Part shown: positions 45,001 to 60,000 of the stretch, piece after piece | Layout of the letters: every line of letters starts with the position of its first letter | Position numbering within the stretch: position 1 is the first letter of the stretch | Made by a program: the position numbers and the translations under genes | Assembly (NCBI GenBank): GCA_030265395.1 | Contig: JARFYF010000053.1 | Span: forward strand, 32,993,788-33,057,787 | Length of the DNA: 64,000 nucleotides | From: Rhina ancylostomus | Lineage: Eukaryota | Reading direction: 5' to 3' | The notes under the pieces: model-generated | The model's database searches: none | Seen by the model: the letters and a program-made list of their open reading frames with translations, nothing else | What the model was told of the DNA's origin: nothing

Positions 45001-48000
45001 AACTTTTAAGTAATATTGTATCTGTTATGATGGGACTGTTTTCCTGGGAAAATAAGGAAATTAGAATTGTTTATTTGGAGGTGGGCTGGTTCACTTGAAT
45101 TTACTGGAAGCTACATTCTGGAACAATTTGAATTCCATCAGCTGGGGAATTTAAGTTCAATTAAATAAACCAGGAATAAAGTTACTATTAGTACTGATGA
45201 CTTTGGAACTACCAACATGGTTGACTCTTAACTGCCCTCTGAAATAAATAATTTAACAGATCACCAGTTCAGGGGAAAATTAGTAATGGACTGTGGATGC
45301 AGACCTTGCCAGCAATATCCATGACCTGTGAATGAATAAAAACAACCAGATCTTGCCAAAATTTTACTCCATCCTAAGCAGGATGTGCATTTGTCCTTTA
45401 GAACTGGGGATGGAGTACATTAAATACATCTAAGTAATGGAAATTTTCGATCATTAATTCAAGATTTAAATGTAAACATGAAGAGCATAAAACAGCAGAT
45501 GCTAGAAATCTGAAAAGGAAACAGAAAATGCTTGGGATGCATAGGTCAGGCAGCATCTGTGTAAAGAAACAATTAACATTTCAGGTTGATGACCTTTCAT
45601 CAGAACTGGATGAACAAAACAGATGTGCAGGGGCTAGTAGGTGGCGACAAAGATTTCCCAGATAACACTATTGTGATCAGTGCCTAAGAGGACAATGAAT
45701 CATTGCTGATCTTAACAAGCATTCATCACCCCTTAGACTAAAACAGCATGTCACACAATCTTGGTATTCACTCTGACATGGATATTTCCTTTGTTCTTTC
45801 CAACTTACTGCCACTCCCACAACTCAAATCATTTCTCACTTATAGGTCTGATGAAAAAGCCTGAAAACGCCATGTCTCTCTCCAAAATCCTGCTAAGCAT
45901 CTCCAGGATTTTCTGTTGAGGGTTAGCAAGTAGAAGTCAGGTGTTTAAAATTAAAGCCAGTTTGAAAGAATGAAGGACAATGTTAAAGCAATTGCCAATG
46001 GAGTAGCACAGAGAATACAAGTATTTTATGTTCACAGTAGAGCACAAGACATTTATACAAAATCATTTTGATCTTTCAGACAGTTATATGGCTGACCTTT
46101 CAAACGATGACAGTGAACTTTTGTTGCTATGCTATTAGAGAGCAACCCAGCTTAATAGCAAAACATTGTTCAAGAGGGAATAAGCATATTCTTGAAAACA
46201 ATACACGCTATCTATTCCAGGACATTGCTTCAGAGTATGGCTACATTTGGTTTGAATTATCAAGCAATGAGTCTGATCACAAAAAACCACCAAAATTAGT
46301 AAATCAAGTTGACCATACATACTGTTTATTTGTTTCCATGGAGAAAGAAACTTTATCTCCTGTTTCAAGTTGGACATTTCCATCAACATCTTCAGGTGTA
46401 TATGTCAGATAAAACACTTCCTAAACCAAAAAGCAGTCAATTAGATCTGGTGGCTGAAAATACAATCACAGCAAAATAATTAAAAGTTAGCTTGTTAAAA
46501 TGGTTAAACTACAAAAGTAATTGTCAGATTTGTATGCCAAGACATTATTTATGAATGAGTGATCTTTAAACTAGCCAGTGGGGAAATTACACAGCTGATG
46601 CTAATCCATTTTTCCTTTCATTTTTCACCAGTTGGTTTAGATTTGCAATGCTCCATATTGAGGGTTTCACTAGTCAATACAGGTCTAAATTAGTTTTTTG
46701 ACAATTGATTTAATTGTGCACATGACCAGCAGTGACAAAAGTAGTCTCAATCTCACCGAAATGCCAGGATAATTAGCCAAGTGCATTCTACCTTCACACA
46801 AATATCTAGATCTACAGACAGCCCTGGTCAGTCAGAAGGAACTCTGACCAACTGCTCCAAACCCAGAGCACCAAGGCCAAAGGCATGCTGAAAGGTCCTA
46901 ATACAGCATGGATGGGAAATAGAATCTTGTGCTTTTCTCATCTCTATAACATTATTAAACTGATGAAACACCAGAGGAAATACTGGTTCAGCTTCCAAAG
47001 AGATATTTATATAGGGTACCACCACAATTAACTTGCCATTAATTCTCCCCCCCCCTCCTCCTCCTCCCCAACCCCTGCTTTTTAAAAACACTTGTCTAAT
47101 TGGCATTATGCCTTATAATAAGCAAGCTGACAAAATGCTTGATTGAGCTCTTGGACAAGCTGCTATAACATTTTTGAATTCCTTCACCACCTTATGATAT
47201 CTCCAAAACCATAGTGACCAAGAAATTAGTATGTGGAGATTGAGGGGGGCAATAAAAGCAAACATTTTTAGGCCAATTACAATGTTTGCTTTAATATAAA
47301 AACCACAGTAGAACAGAGATAAGAAGCCACTCAAAATTTAAAGAAATCCTAGTTGAGTATCTGATTTTGAAATTAGTAGAAAACCATAAAATGCCAAGTT
47401 CCCATTTTCCCCACGTTTCAGCACTGAAGAGGGCTAACAAGATACCGAGTTTACCAATCCCCTGATGCTGCAAGCAAGCTGTAGCCTTGAAATGGTACGT
47501 TATTTAACACTCAAATGAGTATTTTGATGAGGGCGCAAGAGTTTGATGACAGCAACATTGTTAAGAAGGGCAAATTTCCCCAAAGCTCTTGCATCATGGT
47601 GGCAAAGGAAAAACATTCGCTGTGTGGAAAAAGACATTACGCACATGCTCAACATATTACACAGAAGTATTATGAAATTCCTCATAGGTCAGTCTCCCAT
47701 ATACACTTGGGTTTAGTTCTGAATTTGCCAATTAAGAGTTTTACTCTTGTATGTAATTGCTTTCCCCTATAAATAACATGCTTCAAACAATAACAGTATC
47801 GAGGCAAAACCCCAAATTCAGACAAGGGAAATGGGCAGACATTCTATAGAAATTGTAGTTACAGTAATAATTCCCTGCAAGACAAGCCTGGCACTAGAGA
47901 TGCCTAAAGCTATTTACTTAAAGATGATAAAAACAGAATGGCAGGTGGTAGTGTTTTAGGGTCCTTTGAGACTGCACTTTTGATCTTTGGAAAAAGTGTA

Positions 48001-51000
48001 ATGATTTCAGAGTGATCAGTGGATGAAGAATTTAACTGCAGGTGGTCTTGTTACCAAGTTACCTATCTGCCTGTTCTCCCATTGTATACCACCTTTAATG
48101 CAGAGAGTTAAAATTAAGAAATGGATTCAACTCTCAGCATAATTAGAAAAGGGCCAACACTAATCTCTTGCACACATTAGCTGTGCCTGGATATTATGGC
48201 ATATTCTCAAATGCTACCTCTATTATTGACATTCAAACACCGGCCCATGTCTTTTGTTCAATTACAGTAGCAGATCTCATTCCCCATCAATATCTAGAAT
48301 GGAGCTTTCAAACAGATTCTCCTCACATGCATCTGATGTAGGATATCAATGTCAAGATTCCTCCTCTTCTGTTCAACCAAAACAGTGTCTGCTCTTTTAT
48401 CAGAGTGCTAGGAGCAACTACTAGAACACGTTAGACGTACTCATCACAGCAGGGAGGATTCAAGAATACAGCATTTCCTACAAGTTGTCAAAATCCAGAG
48501 CTAAAAAGAAACAATAAAAGCCACCTTACAACAATCCATTTTGTATTTAAAATCTCCCTCTGCTGTCCTACCTGCATTAAAAAATGCCATGGAAGTAGAG
48601 CCTGAATAAAGACCAATTTAACAGAACTAAGCATACCTGGAGCTTATTGTCTCCTTGCACAACGATAACCTACAACATGATACTGCATTCTGTAAACTGA
48701 AAAAATACTGCAGCTTTCATAGACAATGATGTTGCATTTCTTATTGGTACCTGGCTTGCATTCTTGAAAAGTTTCTTTCACTTTGTGACAGAACAACTCC
48801 ATTAACAGCTAAAATCTTTTCAATTACTTTTTTTTTACTCACTCAAGTTGAGAGATATCCTCAATTCCTTCAATATCGTCATGAGGAGCTAAATAGTCAT
48901 CATTTGCATTTTACTGGGGCTAAAAAGTTTGACAATAAAGAAACAGGAAAGGAGAAATTATCTTTGACAAAAGCCTAAACAGATAATTAGATGGCTTCTA
49001 GAAAAAAGTGAAAATTTGAAAATTGGTAATATTAAGTGAATTGTTAATGTGAAATCACTTCTAGTGTTTTCTGTTATTGCATGACGCTCTATTACAACTA
49101 GCATGACAGTATTTCTTGAATGCTAATAACTTCCAAATCAAATTATGGTGGCACTGAGTGGAAACCAGGAACCTCGCCACAGGAGCCAAAGACTTGGTTA
49201 TCCATCTTCTTTCACATATTCTTCCCATCAGTTTTAAACAAAGCATTCAACCACAGGATATTACAGAAGGTCCGGTTTAGACATGGGATTGGAATTTAAA
49301 GGTAAATGGGGCTTGTTCCTGTACTGTACATTTCCACATTCTAGTTCAAAAACAAACATTGAAGATGCTGTCAATCTGAAAAACAAAATTCTTGAAATAC
49401 TCAGGTCAGGGAGCATCTGTGGGGAAGGCTGAAGATTCTTTACCAGAACCAGGAAAGGAACATTAAAAGGTAGTTTCAAGTTACAGTGAGGATGGAAAAG
49501 ACAGGGAATATCTATGATAGGGCAAGGCCAAGTCAAATGGGTTAATGGGGATAGTTGGAGAGTGATTATGCTTCTTTGCCCTGTTGCATTACTAATAGCA
49601 AGGCCCTTCACACTTTAATCCATGACACTTTGGATACCCTCTGCCACTGAAGTTTCCAGTTACCTAGCCCCTAGCCCTAACTGGATTGCCCTTTACCATG
49701 GATGTAAAAATCTCTCCACGCACTTCCATCCCAGACTAGGAAGGGCTGAGCACCCTCTGGCCCTTCCTTGAACCAGTTCCTCTAGAGTAACACTCATTTA
49801 GGTCTGGTTGAACTTGTCCTTTCATTGAACTTCAAACTCCACTCCATTCACTTTCTCCAAATTTAATATGAACTATGGGAACTCTGCACTAGCAAGGTCA
49901 GAGCCATCATGTCCTCATCTTCTACTCCTGCAGTATTCCCATTCAAAGGATCATCCTCTGCAATTCCCACCAGCTCCAATGAGATTCCAGCAGCAGATGC
50001 ATTCCCCTCCCCTTTCAGCATTGCATAGGGACTGTTCCCTTCAGGAATCCATCTGCTCTTCCATGCCCAACCATTCAATATTTTTCATGTCCTTTCAACT
50101 CTTCCCTTCCTACTATCCAGGACCAAGTCTTTACAGGTGAAGCAATTTACTAGCACTTTCAATTGTGTTTTGCATTTCATGTTCAATGTTGTCTCTATTA
50201 CATGAGAGAAACAGGTTAGGCAATTGCTTTGTGAAGTGCTGTATTCTATCTGCAGGAATGACCATCTGTTTTCTGCCACCAACCACCGATCTCCATCCCA
50301 CTCCCATTCTGACCCATGGCCTCCTGCATGGCTGTAAAAAGATCCAAAAATCGTGAGGAACAACACCCACCTGGGAACATTGCAGCTTTATGGAATCAAT
50401 ACTTAATTCCCCAGCTTTAGGTAAATTGCTTTGTCTATGATACTGGCTCAGTTGTTTTCTTTTAAGGAGAGTGACCAGCTGGGCATGTTCCACAGCTCCA
50501 TAATTAGCAAATCGCAATTAAGCATAACCACTCCAAATGCCCCATTAACCCATTTGACCTGGCCTCATCTAACCAAGATATTTCATTTATCCTTTCACCA
50601 CCTTCGCAGCAACTAACTGGAGTTTGTGCAGGCTGGTAGATTAATTACCGTAAAGTGCTCCCAGTGTGTGGATAAGTGGTAGAGAGACTGAGTGTGCATG
50701 CAGAGGGAAGTGTGCACATTTGGGGAGAAAAGGTGGATGGGAATGTGGGGAAAATGGAGGACAGGAATAGCATGAAAGTGGGTTAGTGTGGACTTTATAG
50801 GCCTGCTTCCACGCCATGGCTCTAGAATATAAACTACCTTTTATATCTTGCCCACTTCTGATGGGTCTTCAACCTGGAATATTATTTCTTTTCACAGATG
50901 CTGCCTTACTATTCTGTTTTCACAAATTTAGACTAATGCCCTTAATATTTTGTTCATAGGGATATTAATTGCACAGTATGCTTTGATCAAAAGATTGTCT

Positions 51001-54000
51001 GAAATTTTCATAAAACTTAGGTGCAGACAAATTATGCTGAATATTTCAATCAATTGCACAGTTCAGCAATAACTGGCATGTGCACTCATCTTTACCGAAT
51101 TGAAAACTGCTCTTTTCAGCACATTAATACAAAGCAATTTCCAGATCAAAAGCATCAATTCAGAAATCCGTCCAGCTACTTCCCATCAATCGCACTTGCA
51201 CATATTTTCCATGTCAAACACAAACAACTCGCACAGTAACACTAGTATTTAAAATTTGATCACAATGATCACGTGCACCTACTGCTGGTGAAAACAGCAC
51301 ACACTGAAGAACAGATCAAAGGAGTCTTCCAGATGAGATTCTAATCCACACTAGACCCCTCCTCAAATGTTATTGGTGTTTCAGCCACCTTACCTCCTAC
51401 ATTACCATTGCCACTTCTCCACAACACCCTAAACCCCACCACAGCCTCCCAGCTCATGATCCCAGCCCAATCCAAACCCTTACCTGCTGATGAAACACCA
51501 TCCTCTTATCCAATCACTACAAACATCACCTTTTGATTGACAAATCAAATGTTCCCTTATCACCCAACCATACCCTACCCCATGCACTGATTTCACAACC
51601 CCACAACTCATCTATCTGTACTTTACCCAACTAGTGGTATGATGTATGCAAACAACAGTTGACTTGCTCAAACTTTTCTGATCCACGATCAACGCCTACC
51701 AACACCCAACGCTCTAAATCATCCTACACTTCCCTTACCCACAAATCACTTGCATTGAATTTACAAAGTCCTTTGTGCAATCCCCACCAGAGCCTTGGGT
51801 ACCTGATGGGAGACCCACTGTGGACCAGCACAGAACCAATTAGCACAAGGACAATTATTACACCTCTGCAGCACTGGTGAAATTCTAACCACTTGTTGCT
51901 TCTCCACTCCTTCATGAAAAAGCAAGCGTGAGAATTGTGTTTCATGCATCCCACTGACTTGATGAATATTCCAACATACCACATCATTACTGTGGCCATA
52001 GGCAATGTTTCACAATCTAAAAAAGTGAATTGTAATCCCAACCAAAAAGAATCCAAAAGCAGAATATTCCACTCCAGCTTAGAGCTACTAGATGCAGACA
52101 ATAGATCAAACGTCCTCCCTGTAACTGGAGACTATCCAATGATCAACAGACCCAAGACTCACCACGTGTAGAACCAATCCAACTGTCCTCCATTGATCTA
52201 TTTTCTTCTCATACTATACTTGGCAAGACAGCTTAGCCCATCAAGTCCATTATAGCTCCTCCTCCCCCACTGCTCTATACTCCTGCAACTTAACCTTTCA
52301 TATTCCCATCAATTCTCTATTCTTTTGCTATTAACCTATATCAGTAGATTTTAATAGCAGACAATTAATCTGCTAGCATACCTTTGGATGGGGAGGAAAT
52401 TGGAGCACCAAGAAATTAAGTCATGACAGAATGTGCAAACCCCACACAGCACCTGAAGTGAGGAATGAACCTGGGCCCCTNNNNNNNNNNNNNNNNNNNN
52501 NNNNNNNNNNNNNNNNNNNNNNNNNNNNNNNNNNNNNNNNNNNNNNNNNNNNNNNNNNNNNNNNNNNNNNNNNNNNNNNNNNNNNNNNNNNNNNNNNNNN
52601 NNNNNNNNNNNNNNNNNNNNNNNNNNNNNNNNNNNNNNNNNNNNNNNNNNNNNNNNNNNNNNNNNNNNNNNNNNNNNNNNNNNNNNNNNNNNNNNNNNNN
52701 NNNNNNNNNNNNNNNNNNNNNNGTCAAATTCAGATATGTGGAATGCCATTTTTACATCAAGTCATTTATAGTTGAAACTCCATTGTATGCCACCTTTAAT
52801 GCAAGAAGTAAAATCAATACAGAAATGGATTTAACTTAGTACAGTTAGAAAAGGGCCAACACTAATCTCTTGCACACATTAGCTGTGCCTGGATATTATA
52901 GCATATTCTCAAATGCTACCTCCATCATTGACATTAAAACACTGGCCCATGGTCTTGTTGCTCAAGTACAGTAGCAGATATCTCATTCCCCATCAATAGC
53001 TAGTTGAACCCTAAGAATAAAGCTTTCAAACAGGTTCTCCTCCCACCCACTCCCAACTGTCCCCAATTTGGGAGGAGGAGAATTTTGGCCAAAGCAACTC
53101 TATACTCAAATTGTCCAAGGAATGTATGCACAATATACTGAAGGTAAACCTTTCTTTAAAAAACAAATCTTGCTGGTTATTTCTCAAACAGAGTAAAGCA
53201 CAGAGGCCAGCAAAAAAATTTAGTTATACATTTGGAAACTTTAACTTGGCAAAAAGGNNNNNNNNNNNNNNNNNNNNNNNNNNNNNNNNNNNNNNNNNNN
53301 NNNNNNNNNNNNNNNNNNNNNNNNNNNNNNNNNNNNNNNNNNNNNNNNNNNNNNNNNCTAAAATAAAGGAGAATTCCACAAAAACTTGTCAAAATTCAAA
53401 AGGCAGGAAGTTTAAACTAAACTCAATATCAGCAGGTTGTAAATTTATAGCTTTCCAACATTATCCTATACAGGTGGAATTAAATTGCAGGAGCATATGG
53501 GGAGAAGCAATCTAAAGAAATCAAGTGGATTTACTGGATTTTCTCTCTCATGGTATGTAGAGGATAATGCAGAATGAACTAGAAAAACATTAAAACATTC
53601 AGGGAAAAACAAATCTAGGGCAATTCTGTCCTTCCAAAAGTAGTTGAATAGATGTTGAACTCCATTTGATTTTCCCATTTCCACCTTGTGACAACTGAGC
53701 AAGAATCTTTGAAGGTTCTGCTGTTACCAGATCCTGAAGCAAATCAGAAAACCTTTTGCAATTATGATTCTTGATCAAAGCTCCAATTAATGAGTATGGA
53801 GTCATTACAACAGTTTCAGATACCTCTGCATGTGGCCAATCATTGAAATATTTAAAGCATTTTCCATAATGTATTGCAGTTGATGTTTCAACTTCAAGAG
53901 ACCAACTCTGAGGAAAAGTAGACATTAGGCAAAGTAGAATCTTCAAATTAATGCAAGGTGAAATGAGCTTTACAGTTACTCTGGCTTACTAACTTTGGAA

Positions 54001-57000
54001 TGTTTACTTGAAATAATCTACGACATTAGAACAAGATTGCAAGAGAGAAAGATTTGAAGTATACAGCTTTGAGGTTTGTAGAAGCCAACCACTCACTTTG
54101 AACAAAATACAATATCTGTGCCCCCTGCAACCAACCCCCTCCCCATGCAAGTATGATAATCTAATCTTTTCCCCACTGGAAACTTCCAAATGAATTGACA
54201 GAATCTTCCACTTCAAAAAAAACAGCAAGGACCAAGGAGCCAAATGCTTGCAAGGCTAAAATATTGTGCCCAAATAAACTGAATGATTTCAACATCACCC
54301 AAAAAACTATTATAGGCACTTATCCCATTGTATTACTTAAAGCTGTGGCAAAATTATGTCTGTTTACACAGGGCAGCTTGGGACAAAAATCTGACCAAAA
54401 TCACAAAATGCAGAATAGCCCACATTTCTCAGGACAACCTTACCTAATGCTGTCAACTTGTATACCTCTGGGATCCAGAAATTCTCATGACCCACGTGCT
54501 TATCCCTCCAACCCATCTATATCTTGTTTAATACATATATAGAAATAGATACCGTCCCCTTAAACCAGTACAGGGTGGTATCTTGGAGCTTGCTAGAGGC
54601 ATCATCTGCAGTCAGAAGTACTGAAATCAATGCTGATAACACTCTGCAAAGGATCCAGTGTTTTTCAGGGACTGAAACACGCATTTGCATTAAATTTAGA
54701 GTGAAACATCTTCCAGTTGTTTAAAGTCATGCACAGCATTCACTGAAGGAATGAGCTTGGAGCCAGAATCCTGCAGTTGTAGAACTTGATTAATACTTCA
54801 ATCCTACATTTGGACATTTTCATGCTTATGGCAAAAATTGTTGTTGCTTAATTTTGCATATTACTAAGTTTTAGACTCTAGTTTTGCAAAGATTAAACTA
54901 TTTAAAACTAAAGTTAAGCTCTGAAGGAACAATTTTCCATGATCTTTATTCAAATGCTACCCAAATGATAAAAGCCAAAATTAACACAAAGATTACTGGG
55001 GTGTGGAAATTAATTTGAGGCAAGAGGTTACCCATATTTATTGGAACCATCTAATTTAAAATCAATCTGGCTGACATATGCATGCATGCCTAAACTCAAG
55101 TGCCTGTATGGGCGACCTACCTGAAAGATCATTTATTACCTGGAAAGACAAAATCCAATCTTACCCCATTGCGTTCATAGCACACACTGCCTGAAGTCTG
55201 ACCAGGAGATGAAGGTTTCAGCCCAGATTTGTTCTCAAGGTTAAGGGGAGCAGCACAGACAACCTGGACATACCATGACATAACAAAGAATAATGTCAGG
55301 AGGGTACATGAAGGCTTTCCAGGGGTTGAAAATGCCACTGGTCAAAGGCCCCAGGTGTGTCTAGTTTTGGGTTTAGACCAGCAGAAAATATTCCTCCAAT
55401 GCCTTATGAATTGGTAGAAGAAAAATGACTCGTAGTACCAGATTTCTGCCACTATTCTATTCATATTGCACATCTAGCAGCAGTAATTCGGTACTGAAAC
55501 TATCAGACCTGCAATGGCCTGACAAACTGATTAAAATTCCAGTGTCTGTTTCCAAAACCACTACATCTAACTTTTCAACCCCTGATTTCCAGATGATTTG
55601 TTGGCAAAAACAGTTCTCTTACAAGGTCAGAAACTTTTTGTTGTAGACAACAGTCAAAACATTTGATGACAATGTTCCATTAGAGAAAGGTAACTTGCAC
55701 ACCAGTAAGTGTAGTTTCATTGAAATATGAAGATATTATCCTCCACATACCATGGGGGAAGAAAGAAAATCATGATGCAATGGGGTAATCACTATTCATC
55801 TGTCCCTTTAAGAGATTTGCCCTTGAGCATTCCCATTTTAGTCACCGTCACTGGTGGTTACGCCTTCAACTACTTAGTTAGCACTTCAAAATCTACCTTT
55901 CATAAGGTTTAGGTCATCCACTCCAATTCCTCCTTATGAGGCTTGGAGTCACATTTTGTTTTTAATTATGTTGCTGTAAATGTCTAGGATATTTTACATG
56001 AAAAGATGTACACAGTTATTGATTATTGAACTCCTTTTCCAAGTTACGTGTAGAAAAATTCTTCAACTCCACTTCAAATATATATCATTAATTTTGAAAA
56101 GGGTACTTACATTAAGTATCCTGCATCAAAGCAGATCAGACTGAGCTTCCTAGAACCAGGAACAAAGTACAACAAAATGGAAAGCTATATCTCAAGAACC
56201 TGATTATTGAAGCAAGGTCTAGAACTGGTTCGGAGTGGTGAATAAAGGACAAGTTGAGTGTAACTTCAACACAAAATAGAAATTGAGTAATTTTTTTCCA
56301 TTATCCTCCACACACCATGCGCATTTCCACAACAGAACCTCAGAAGCAGAAGACTATATTCTACTAACCAAATATCCATTCATTAGCAACCAAATCATAG
56401 CATTTAGAGTATATATGGCCATTCTGGTCTACATTAAGTAATAAAAAGTTAGAATGTTGTTAAACCTAGAATTCAGATACTGCAGGAATTTAAAAGTTAC
56501 CACAAGAAAGGCTCACTAATCTCAAAAACATTAGTCACTCACCCTACAGGCTGACACTCAAGCCACAAAAATGACACTTCCCTACCTTTGATATGGTCTT
56601 AACTAATGAATAAACAAACCCATACTAACACTCACTACTCTCCCCCTTCATAATTTTAGTAGCATAGATTACCCATTCAGCCTCACTACTGGAGTACAGA
56701 ATGCAGTTTATAATTCTTGTGCATCACAATGGAAGTGTTCTACACCATCTTTTAAAATATAAACACTGCAGACCACAAGACATTATGAAATGCACACAAG
56801 GCAAGCTAATGATGCTGCCAAAAATGAGATCATTCCTCACCACCTAGTGAAATATTGGATGACATTCAAATCAAACATGTAACCGCAGACCAGTTAAACT
56901 GTTATTTTTAATTATCAAATTGAGAAAAAAAACAAATGCTCCTGTTTCAAGAACAAAAAATTGGAATTACCCAACTTCTTTCTGCTCTAGATTCAAATAA

Positions 57001-60000
57001 AAATTAGAATGCTCAATTCCTCCACTTAGATGAATAGGTAGGAAACCACCTTCCTTCAAAAAGACTTCAGCCATTTCCCCCTTGCAAAATGGACAGATTT
57101 TATAAGACAAGTCATTGGAGCAGAATTAGGCCATTCTGCCCCGAGTCTGCTGCTATTCAATCATGACTGATTTATTTTTTCCCCTCAACTCCATCTTTCT
57201 GCCTTCTCTCCACAACCATTGACTGCCTTGCTAATCAAGAACCTATCAACCTCAGCTTTAAATATACCTAATGACTTGGCCTCCACAACCATCTGTGGCA
57301 ATGAATTCCACAGGTTTACTACCTTTAGCTAAAGAAATTCTTCCTCGCCTGTTCTAAAAGGGACATGCTTCTATTCTGAGGCTGTGCCCTCTGGTCCTAG
57401 ACTCATTTTGGTTTGTCTTTATTAAAAAAACTTTAGTTGCTCAAGGTGCCCAATTTTGATTGCCTGCACTGATAAACAGTCTCAAGTAATCTGAAGAGCA
57501 ACACACTGATTTAACAAAATTCAACTACTTTAATACCATACAGACCAACTGACAGCAGGGATAAAATACTGCGCCCAAATAAACTAGATAATTTCAACTG
57601 CACTCAAAAACATGATTGAATATCCAGACATGTCCCATTTGCTTTAAGGTCTGGTTGTTTGGATTCCTTCCTCAGATTAGTCCCTATTTTCATAAGCTAG
57701 CTACTCACAAATAGATAAATACAACTTCCACCTGCCCACTTTTTGGTATGGGAATCAAAGTCAAGATGAAGGGAATGAAAAGAGTATTAGAGACTGCATA
57801 ATACAATCCACATGCAAGATTGACATATCTGTCATGCAATTACCCTCTTCATCCCAAAACACATGGCAGATCAATTGGGACAATAGTTGAAGCTACCTTA
57901 TTACTCTCACCAGGTACATTAGTCTTAAATAGGGTTACTCAGATTAGCCTTAGTTTCATGAAAGTTTGAGGCAGTCAGGGGAAAGGAAACTATAGAAAGA
58001 CTGGGGTTGGAGTATCTAATTGATAAGTCAAAAATAAAAAGCTGGTTTCAACAAAAGGGCAACTCCATTAGAAAGTTCACTTATTTTATTCTCTGCATGG
58101 CTAACAAACAAGCCCAAATGCTATAACTATTCATAACTGCATTTAAAATAGCTGCAGACTACAGAGTATCCTCAGCAAGACAAGATCCGTAATGTTCTAA
58201 CCTCAACAGGCCACAAGTTTAAGCAACTTATCTCCATTTCTTGAACGAAAAATGTTTAAGTGCCAACACTGGTAATGAAGCCTATCTGTAAACCCATTAA
58301 CATTACTAGCAGTAACACCAAATATTAGCAAAATAGCCACACACCCAAATGTAGCTCTATACTGTCAGACTATATGCAAGTTACTGTGCCAAGTCAATCA
58401 TCGAATTCTCTCTTGATGTACTCATTTTCCTCAAAATAAATGAGCATGGACCAGAAAAATTGGGCACAATGGAGGAATTCATCACCTGATTTACTGACAT
58501 CATTTGCAGAAACATACCTTTCCTCAGCCACAATCATTTCACTTCATCAGTGGAAGTACAGCTAAATAAAAACAAGAGTTGTTTGCCTGAAGGCATTTGA
58601 ATTTCTGTATACGCTTCCTTGATGTGATTTTCACAGCATGTCTACACATGCTGCTTTACATTGGAGTTCAGGAAGAGAATTTGTCAGCATTTGACCAAAA
58701 TAGTTTTCTATGGATGTTAGAACTGCTTCCTTGAAGTTCTGCATGTTCTGAAATCTAAAAAGAAATCTGATTGAAGGGCCATGGCCTTTGGTGCAAGGTA
58801 CCCAAGATCCAAAATAATAAAAAGCCAGGCAGTGGTAATTAAACAGCACTGAAGTTTCTCCCTCACCCACCCCCAAAAAGATTCAGATTACACCAAAGAT
58901 GCAGTTACTTTGGGCTGTGATGCCAGGAAGCAGCGTAATGAGTTTCAGTATCAAATAACCCTTTAAATGCAAGAAACAAGAGGAATTTTCCAGAGAAAAT
59001 CTAACCAGGTGAAAACAATACCACCCAAATACTGAAGAGCTTCTATAGATATGACAGCAATACTTAAAACTGCTGATAGTTAAGAGGCCACTTTGCTCCA
59101 AGTATCACCTTAAGGAAAGAGCTTTTGGCATCCACCTTGAAGAATGCAAGTAACTTTAATTTTTTTTTAAAAAGTCAGACAGCAACACAAGGGAAAAATG
59201 TGAAAAGATGAGGAGCAAGAGGGACAAAAATGCCTGTGAATCCAGTCATGGTTGTGCCAGAAGGACAAATGCAATATTTCAGCAGAAGTTGCTTGCATTA
59301 GAAGAGCACAAATTGGATAAGTAAAGATCATGCACATGGACCAGCTAAAATCGGTGGAAAGAATCCTTAGAAACTGAAAAGGAGATTCAGAAAGTCAGCA
59401 CATGGTCAACTGACTTTTCCATCAACTCAAATTCTCACTCCAATTGTGGCTCATTAAAAACAATTAGTATATTCTGAATTAGGGCTCCAAAAAACAGAAG
59501 AGCTGAAAATAAACATGATTTGTGTTGCATACACAAGTCCCATCCAGCTGAAGACTATGAAGTTTCAAAGTTGGATTCTCAAGCCTAAGCCCAACAGATG
59601 ACAATTAATTTCAATACCACCAGGTGGGAGATGCAGACAAGGTATTCTCTCAAAGGAGCAGGAATTCAAAGATCAGCATTCCTTTGGATTTATTGACTTA
59701 AGGGAACTACATATGGTATGTGGAGAACAAAGAATTTAAGGTATTGACCTTCCTTCACCCACTGCCCATCCCCAGCATTAATATTTTGAATTTGAAGATC
59801 AGGCTTCCTGCATGCTGTTACCATGGCAAGAAAAACTCCAATCGAGTTTGAAATTGGCAAGACAATTGTTCCAAAAGATATCTATTTTAATTCCTATTAA
59901 ATTGAATTAAATTCAGGATGGTGCAGATAATGCATTGCAAATTTAGAAATGTAGCTTTACAGAATAGTAAATACTTCTGTTTACAGTAACTAAACTCCAA

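Follow-up and report, generated by a model that had tools for sequence, protein, structure and literature searches.

Within a 64,000-nucleotide (nt) stretch of the Rhina ancylostomus genome (GenBank assembly GCA_030265395.1, contig JARFYF010000053.1; hereafter the window, numbered from its first letter), one intron of the CSDE1 gene carries two copies of an element that probably represents a new orphan family of long (245-262 nt) H/ACA RNAs absent from Rfam. We put the probability of this reading, which is based on sequence and folding, at roughly 0.6. The copies, A (48080..48324, minus strand) and B (52781..53042, minus strand), are paralogs of one discrete, sharply bounded intronic element. 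BLAST aligns 48324-48079 with 53042-52780 at 83.8% identity over 266 columns (E 3e-76), as direct copies 4.7 kb apart with an ungapped 117-nt core at 92% identity. The alignment bears out the direct duplication of ~245 nt in one intron described in an initial annotation of this DNA, and the near-identical core of ~75 nt quoted there was found in the sequence. The flanks had also been called unrelated, and their local alignments were indeed no better than those of shuffled sequences (equalled by 110 of 500 shuffles for the 57 nt downstream and 457 of 500 for the 214 nt upstream); nor do the hairpins immediately upstream of each copy have any sequence in common. Homology between the copies stops 4 nt past an ACA. 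From the blastn boundaries, a scan for H box, hairpin and ACA, and comparison with a second organism, we predict H/ACA-type RNAs of ~262 nt for copy B, ending at ACA+3 and apparently the better kept of the two, and of ~245 nt for copy A, which seems to be drifting.

This pattern has a counterpart among known H/ACA RNAs of the same genome. Three U17/SNORA73 copies lie within 1.6 kb of each other (C55:12238963-12240553); they are 80-85% identical, with homology that starts at the RNA's first base and stops at approximately the ACA, and with unaligned flanks. Copies A and B bear the same signature of divergence, ends and flanks as the three U17 paralogs, which counts in favour of an H/ACA RNA. 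Whether the query was the full element, the middle portion or the 3' half, a search of the 2.2-Gb genome gave two candidates, copies A and B. Such DNA searches have BLAST-level sensitivity, skip common words and give lower bounds for repeats. No third copy was detected in 114 kb with a model of the middle or in 94 kb with a model of the 3' part (next best E 0.12), and 29 loci found in a metagenome scan with a 17-nt core motif had no match extending past ~30 nt, as expected by chance. The initial annotation had noted that many dispersed copies would point to a transposon. With two places in the genome at BLAST sensitivity, and read depth over both copies at the single-copy level where true repeats of the same intron reach 200-250, a transposable element was rejected.

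The host gene was identified as CSDE1/UNR, on the minus strand, from cold-shock domain matches in Pfam and a UNR match in the PDB (E 1e-17). Exon placement puts both copies, in the same sense as the transcript, inside an intron of 8,743 nt (~8.7 kb; 46422..55164, minus strand), between an exon ending ...GSVCYERNG and the next exon. Runs of N flanking copy B are assembly gaps, and a contig of the second organism bridges 53252 to 53365. Between B and A lies a candidate 60-nt cassette exon (48441-48500, minus strand), with a pyrimidine-rich acceptor at 48501, a donor GTACGT at 48440 (GTACAT in the second organism) and two in-frame TGA codons at its end; if used, it would place the copies in two separate introns and yield a decay-prone mRNA. 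A single-copy segment of 824 nt (50918-51743) has CAG/GTAAG at 51486, and a recursive-splice-type site there was rejected because this segment is missing from the second organism.

The H/ACA character of the element emerges from a revised 3' half. When the linker is folded together with the 3' part, a single long hairpin forms, with an internal loop and an upper stem, ending 2 nt before the ACA. It begins at GCCCUUUU, taking up the GGCCC formerly assigned to a middle domain, and its lower stem pairs GCCCUUUU with AAAGGUGGC, the right strand being written AAAGGUGGY. The hairpin folds at −19.8 kcal/mol in copy A (48088..48154, minus strand; z −3.46, 0 of 200 shuffles) and at −14.4 kcal/mol in copy B (52789..52856, minus strand; z −1.53, 10 of 200). 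At ~68 nt and with its internal loop, it falls within the 60-75 nt of an H/ACA 3' hairpin. The ANANNA box AGAUUA, the same in both copies (48161..48166 in A and 52863..52868 in B, minus strand), lies in the hinge, 6 nt ahead of the 3' stem. The ACA follows directly, 2 nt past the stem in both copies and 3 nt from the predicted 3' end (box plus tail at 48080..48085 in A and 52781..52786 in B, minus strand). On this fold model AGAUUA is the best-supported candidate H box; AAAAGA (48250..48255, copy A) and ACAAGA (52953..52958, copy B; both minus strand), earlier taken for that box, may act as a second one.

A scan of 995 minus-strand ACAs for an H box, hairpin and ACA in this order passed 68, with copy A at rank 4 and copy B at rank 17, and gave both an identical H box, a 6-nt hinge and a 2-nt gap to the ACA. 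The energy of copy B was reached by 17 of the 995; on the plus strand, 99 of 1614 ACAs passed and 26 of 1614 reached that energy. Differences between the copies are unevenly placed in this region. None falls in the 24 positions of H box, hinge and left lower stem, and the one among the 19 positions of right lower stem and ACA changes G-C to G-U, while the upper hairpin has 11 in 45 positions plus 5 gap columns. One pair in the 3' hairpin is compensatory, G48133-C48105 in copy A against A-U in copy B, and 38 of 40 cells pair.

The 5' domain (48167..48324, 159 nt, in copy A; 52869..53042, ~175 nt, in copy B; minus strand) comprises several short hairpins with competing folds (z −1.43 and +0.53), and an insertion makes one apical loop 12 nt longer in copy B than in A. 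Three folds compete for the 5' hairpin directly before the H box. The consensus of the Cajal body (CAB) box is UGAG. This sequence lies in a hairpin loop in copy B (52908..52911, minus strand; pair probabilities 0.95-1.0) and in the consensus hairpin in copy A (48206..48209, minus strand). A GCACA/UGUGC hairpin, resembling an inserted hairpin, stops 3 nt short of the H box (52872..52888 in B, with probability ~0.94, and 48170..48186 in A, minus strand); two changes of the second organism in copy A's hairpin both yield G-U pairs. All motifs named in the initial annotation (AAAAGA/ACAAGA, the UGAG loop, GCACA/UGUGC, and ACA followed by AUG) are present in the sequence. Its hand-folded hairpins did no better than dinucleotide shuffles (z +0.59 and +1.95 for the 5' hairpin, −0.24 and +0.32 for the 3' hairpin); the same test on the hairpins of this genome's SNORA53 gave z −2.53 and −3.47. 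Its reading of the element as an H/ACA small Cajal body RNA (scaRNA) keeps the H/ACA type, by way of a different 3' half; the scaRNA label is tentative, coming from one UGAG in a loop that may or may not belong to an H/ACA hairpin. A C/D or composite C/D-H/ACA RNA was rejected, there being no C box and D box common to both copies. Folds of the plus strand of the element are not significant (z +0.33 and −0.99). In the segment directly 5' of copy A (48400-48447, minus strand), a GUGAUGA and a CUGA ~40 nt apart resemble C/D boxes; they are not in copy B, have no terminal stem and show several changes in the second organism, and are probably due to chance.

Both copies are present in the second organism, where the intron as a whole differs at 115 of 4347 positions (2.65%; eight contig pieces summed). 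From the 5' end through the middle, copy B has 2 changes in 181 nt compared with 8 in 165 for copy A, an asymmetry with P ~0.11; counted along the entire element, events number 7 in B and 13 in A (P 0.26). In its copy A the second organism has ACG in place of ACA and one change in the lower stem, on a contig of depth 4.6 in which errors are possible. Among the changes listed, none affects AGAUUA. Its copy B is altered in the left upper stem, at the positions equivalent to 48141 and 48140, with three more, unlisted mismatches among those equivalent to 48079-48108. These observations suggest that copy B has been kept while copy A drifts, and it seems likely that B is the working copy and that A is decaying in at least one lineage.

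Several results weigh against an H/ACA RNA. The free fold of copy B favours the GGGCC/GGCCC domain, discussed below, over the revised parse by ~5 kcal/mol. Folding of the whole element is not significant (z −1.30 and +0.73), unlike that of this genome's SNORA53 (whole-RNA z −2.55). The scan thresholds were chosen after the revised parse was known, and the scan passes SNORA53 and only one of the three U17 copies. Covariation between the two sequences is the same as in a shuffled control (238 of 500). Neither copy is significantly constrained against the 2.65% background: the 246 positions of copy A show 11 substitutions (nine listed, two inferred from contig counts) and 2 indels, copy B has 6 to 9 substitutions in 261 (partly inferred, with three mismatches counted whose positions are not listed), and the 2 changes in 181 nt of copy B's 5' part give P 0.14. 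Two small nucleolar RNAs (snoRNAs) in one intron is, moreover, the less common arrangement (PMC11028025).

The target searches belong on the same side. The target set, of up to 6,934 nt, comprised this genome's U1, U2, U4, U5, U6, U12, 18S and most of 28S, with the 28S 3' middle taken from degraded copies; 5.8S, U11, U4atac, U6atac, U3 and parts of 28S were outside it. The 28S 3' end on contig C6968 has variable segments strongly unlike another 28S copy, and may derive from another organism in the assembly. In an H/ACA pocket the target U is placed 14-15 nt from the box (PMC8763049). With a U required, no pseudouridylation target in this set scored above shuffled targets for any pocket, whether from the earlier fold, the revised fold or the UGAG hairpin; the earlier-fold search broke off with the 3' hairpin, in which copy A offers no closable pocket. 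Orphan H/ACA RNAs are known. The best weak targets shared by the copies, U2 U34 (8 pairs) and a 28S site, were rejected as lying within the shuffled nulls. Contiguous complements of 10-12 nt to the targets were as numerous as expected by chance, and duplexes of the whole element with six small nuclear RNAs were no better than those of shuffles. Without the U requirement, U2 stem-loop IV can pair with the strands on either side of the UGAG hairpin, through 8+7 pairs for copy B (equalled by 2 of 100 shuffles) and 6+7 for copy A (by 5 of 100). This putative pairing was noticed post hoc, has no U at the junction and is about equalled in score by a 28S site; it is only a lead.

The observations on drift are also what would be expected if a 250-nt piece, possibly a former small RNA, had been copied locally, perhaps gene-converted, and both copies were now drifting as neutral or dead sequence. 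The substitution rate of copy A is at or above background, with 7 substitutions in its middle 96 nt against 2.5 expected, that of copy B is not significantly lower, and the ACG of the second organism's copy A and the unremarkable folding of the whole element fit as well. We nevertheless consider neutrality unlikely: both copies end at ACA+4 with an H box, hairpin and ACA that pass the scan, the changes between them fall mainly in the loops and upper stem, with the base nearly intact, and the element is 84% identical while its flanks are unalignable. A transposon fragment of low copy number, or an enhancer, retained as two copies at the DNA level would account for sharp edges, duplication and non-coding sequence, and repeats could be more numerous than the DNA searches show. 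Such an element would leave the G-U pairs produced by stem changes on the transcribed strand without a reason, and the absence of dispersed copies and the single-copy depth make it very improbable.

A further possibility is a cis-acting structure in the CSDE1 pre-mRNA, affecting splicing of the neighbouring exon or feedback by an RNA-binding protein, in which the boxes would be incidental. It would be built on the domain closed by GGGCC/GGCCC in the initial annotation, which stands in copy B as a three-way junction with pair probabilities of ~0.9 (z −2.95, 0 of 300 shuffles), its best local fold. A sliding 96-nt window reached no such z at any of 170 placements in the intron (its borders were not tuned), and this is the stretch best conserved between the copies. 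Copy A fails to support the domain (z −0.57), three of the five differences between the copies within it disrupting a pair there, and homology that continues for another 70 nt to ACA+4 is left unexplained, so that we regard a cis-acting structure as quite unlikely. In the fold models this conformer and the revised 3' hairpin are mutually exclusive, and either may form.

An H/ACA RNA is the preferred reading. The undescribed family proposed in the initial annotation is in keeping with cmscan, which gave no Rfam 15 match at the gathering score in the whole window and chance-level matches only at E up to 10. No CSDE1-hosted snoRNA was found in the literature searched, which was mostly open-access, with automated annotations of related species outside its scope. 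Among the supplementary files covered, the term CSDE1 had no match in those of PMC6984369 (a weak negative, as the tables mostly give coordinates and not host names), in those of PMC2653536 or in one of three files of PMC4914119; in 10 of 13 files of PMC4053766 it occurs with one exonic cluster.

A second two-copy element lies in CSDE1 introns at 54240-54305 and 57545-57610 (minus strand), 82% identical over 56 nt and found at two places in the genome, with no Rfam match. One copy, at 54.3 kb, shares the intron of A and B; its strong hairpin (54319-54265, z −3.79) leads into ACA-AUA, and it passes the scan. The final 11 nt of copy A recur directly before it. The other copy, at 57.6 kb, lies one intron earlier and has a weak fold, with GCA at the ACA position. 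This pair is possibly another snoRNA with a decayed paralog.

Following established H/ACA biogenesis, the predicted RNA would be released by splicing of the CSDE1 intron and trimmed by exonucleases; the 3' hairpin and ACA would serve as the assembly site of dyskerin, NOP10, NHP2 and GAR1, and these proteins would protect the RNA and define its 3' end. Function would then reside in the enlarged 5' domain with its several hairpins, as it does in the extra domains of U17 and SNORA53. If the RNA is expressed, binding of WDR79 to the UGAG loop and delivery to Cajal bodies is conceivable, if somewhat doubtful. Two snoRNAs in one intron can give a long RNA with snoRNA ends (PMC11028025), and two such RNAs here would imply one of ~5 kb (4,963 nt), provided that copy A is active and no exon intervenes. 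That the copies do cap an H/ACA-ended RNA of ~5 kb, or that the mature product is an H/ACA RNA of Cajal bodies that modifies no target and clamps U2 stem-loop IV with the strands flanking its UGAG hairpin, we consider a long shot. Expression of the element would add a vertebrate H/ACA family absent from Rfam 15, in a host gene without a snoRNA in the literature searched, to the few long H/ACA RNAs (U17, SNORA53) with extra domains beyond guiding one modification. Its two copies per intron offer a direct test, outside mammals, of the tendency to one snoRNA per intron, the outcomes being a silent copy, a separating exon or a SLERT-like 5-kb RNA.

The element resembles H/ACA snoRNAs and scaRNAs in its sense intronic position, ANANNA box, hinge, 3' hairpin with an internal loop, predicted end at ACA+3, and the presence, within a single host gene, of paralogs that do not align in their flanks. 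It differs from the usual members in being about twice as long, in lacking a clear single 5' hairpin and in having two copies per intron; neither a target nor an Rfam match was found. The sno-lncRNAs, among them the H/ACA-ended SLERT, likewise come from two snoRNAs in one intron (PMC11028025), and copies B and A would enclose 4,963 nt in the same way; SLERT, which is reported as human-specific, requires exon skipping, whereas copies A and B appear to share one intron. SNORA53 (ACA53) has the same size (244 nt in this genome), a long 5' domain and a 3' hairpin without a known target (PMC8763049). Its 5' domain is, unlike that of the element, one branched hairpin with a working pocket, and identity with SNORA53 was rejected, since RF00563 matches another contig (140.6 bits) and not the element, with no convincing sequence likeness. 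Identity with U17/SNORA73 (snR30) was also rejected: the m1 and m2 motifs seen in the genome's own U17 are absent from the element's 3' hairpin, cmscan gives no RF00045 match, and true U17 copies lie elsewhere in the genome. In architecture the two are nonetheless alike, as U17 combines two stems and an internal hairpin with a 3' hairpin of the standard kind (PMC7601244), and the element shares with it a multi-hairpin 5' domain before the H box, a standard 3' hairpin and a similar divergence between paralogs.

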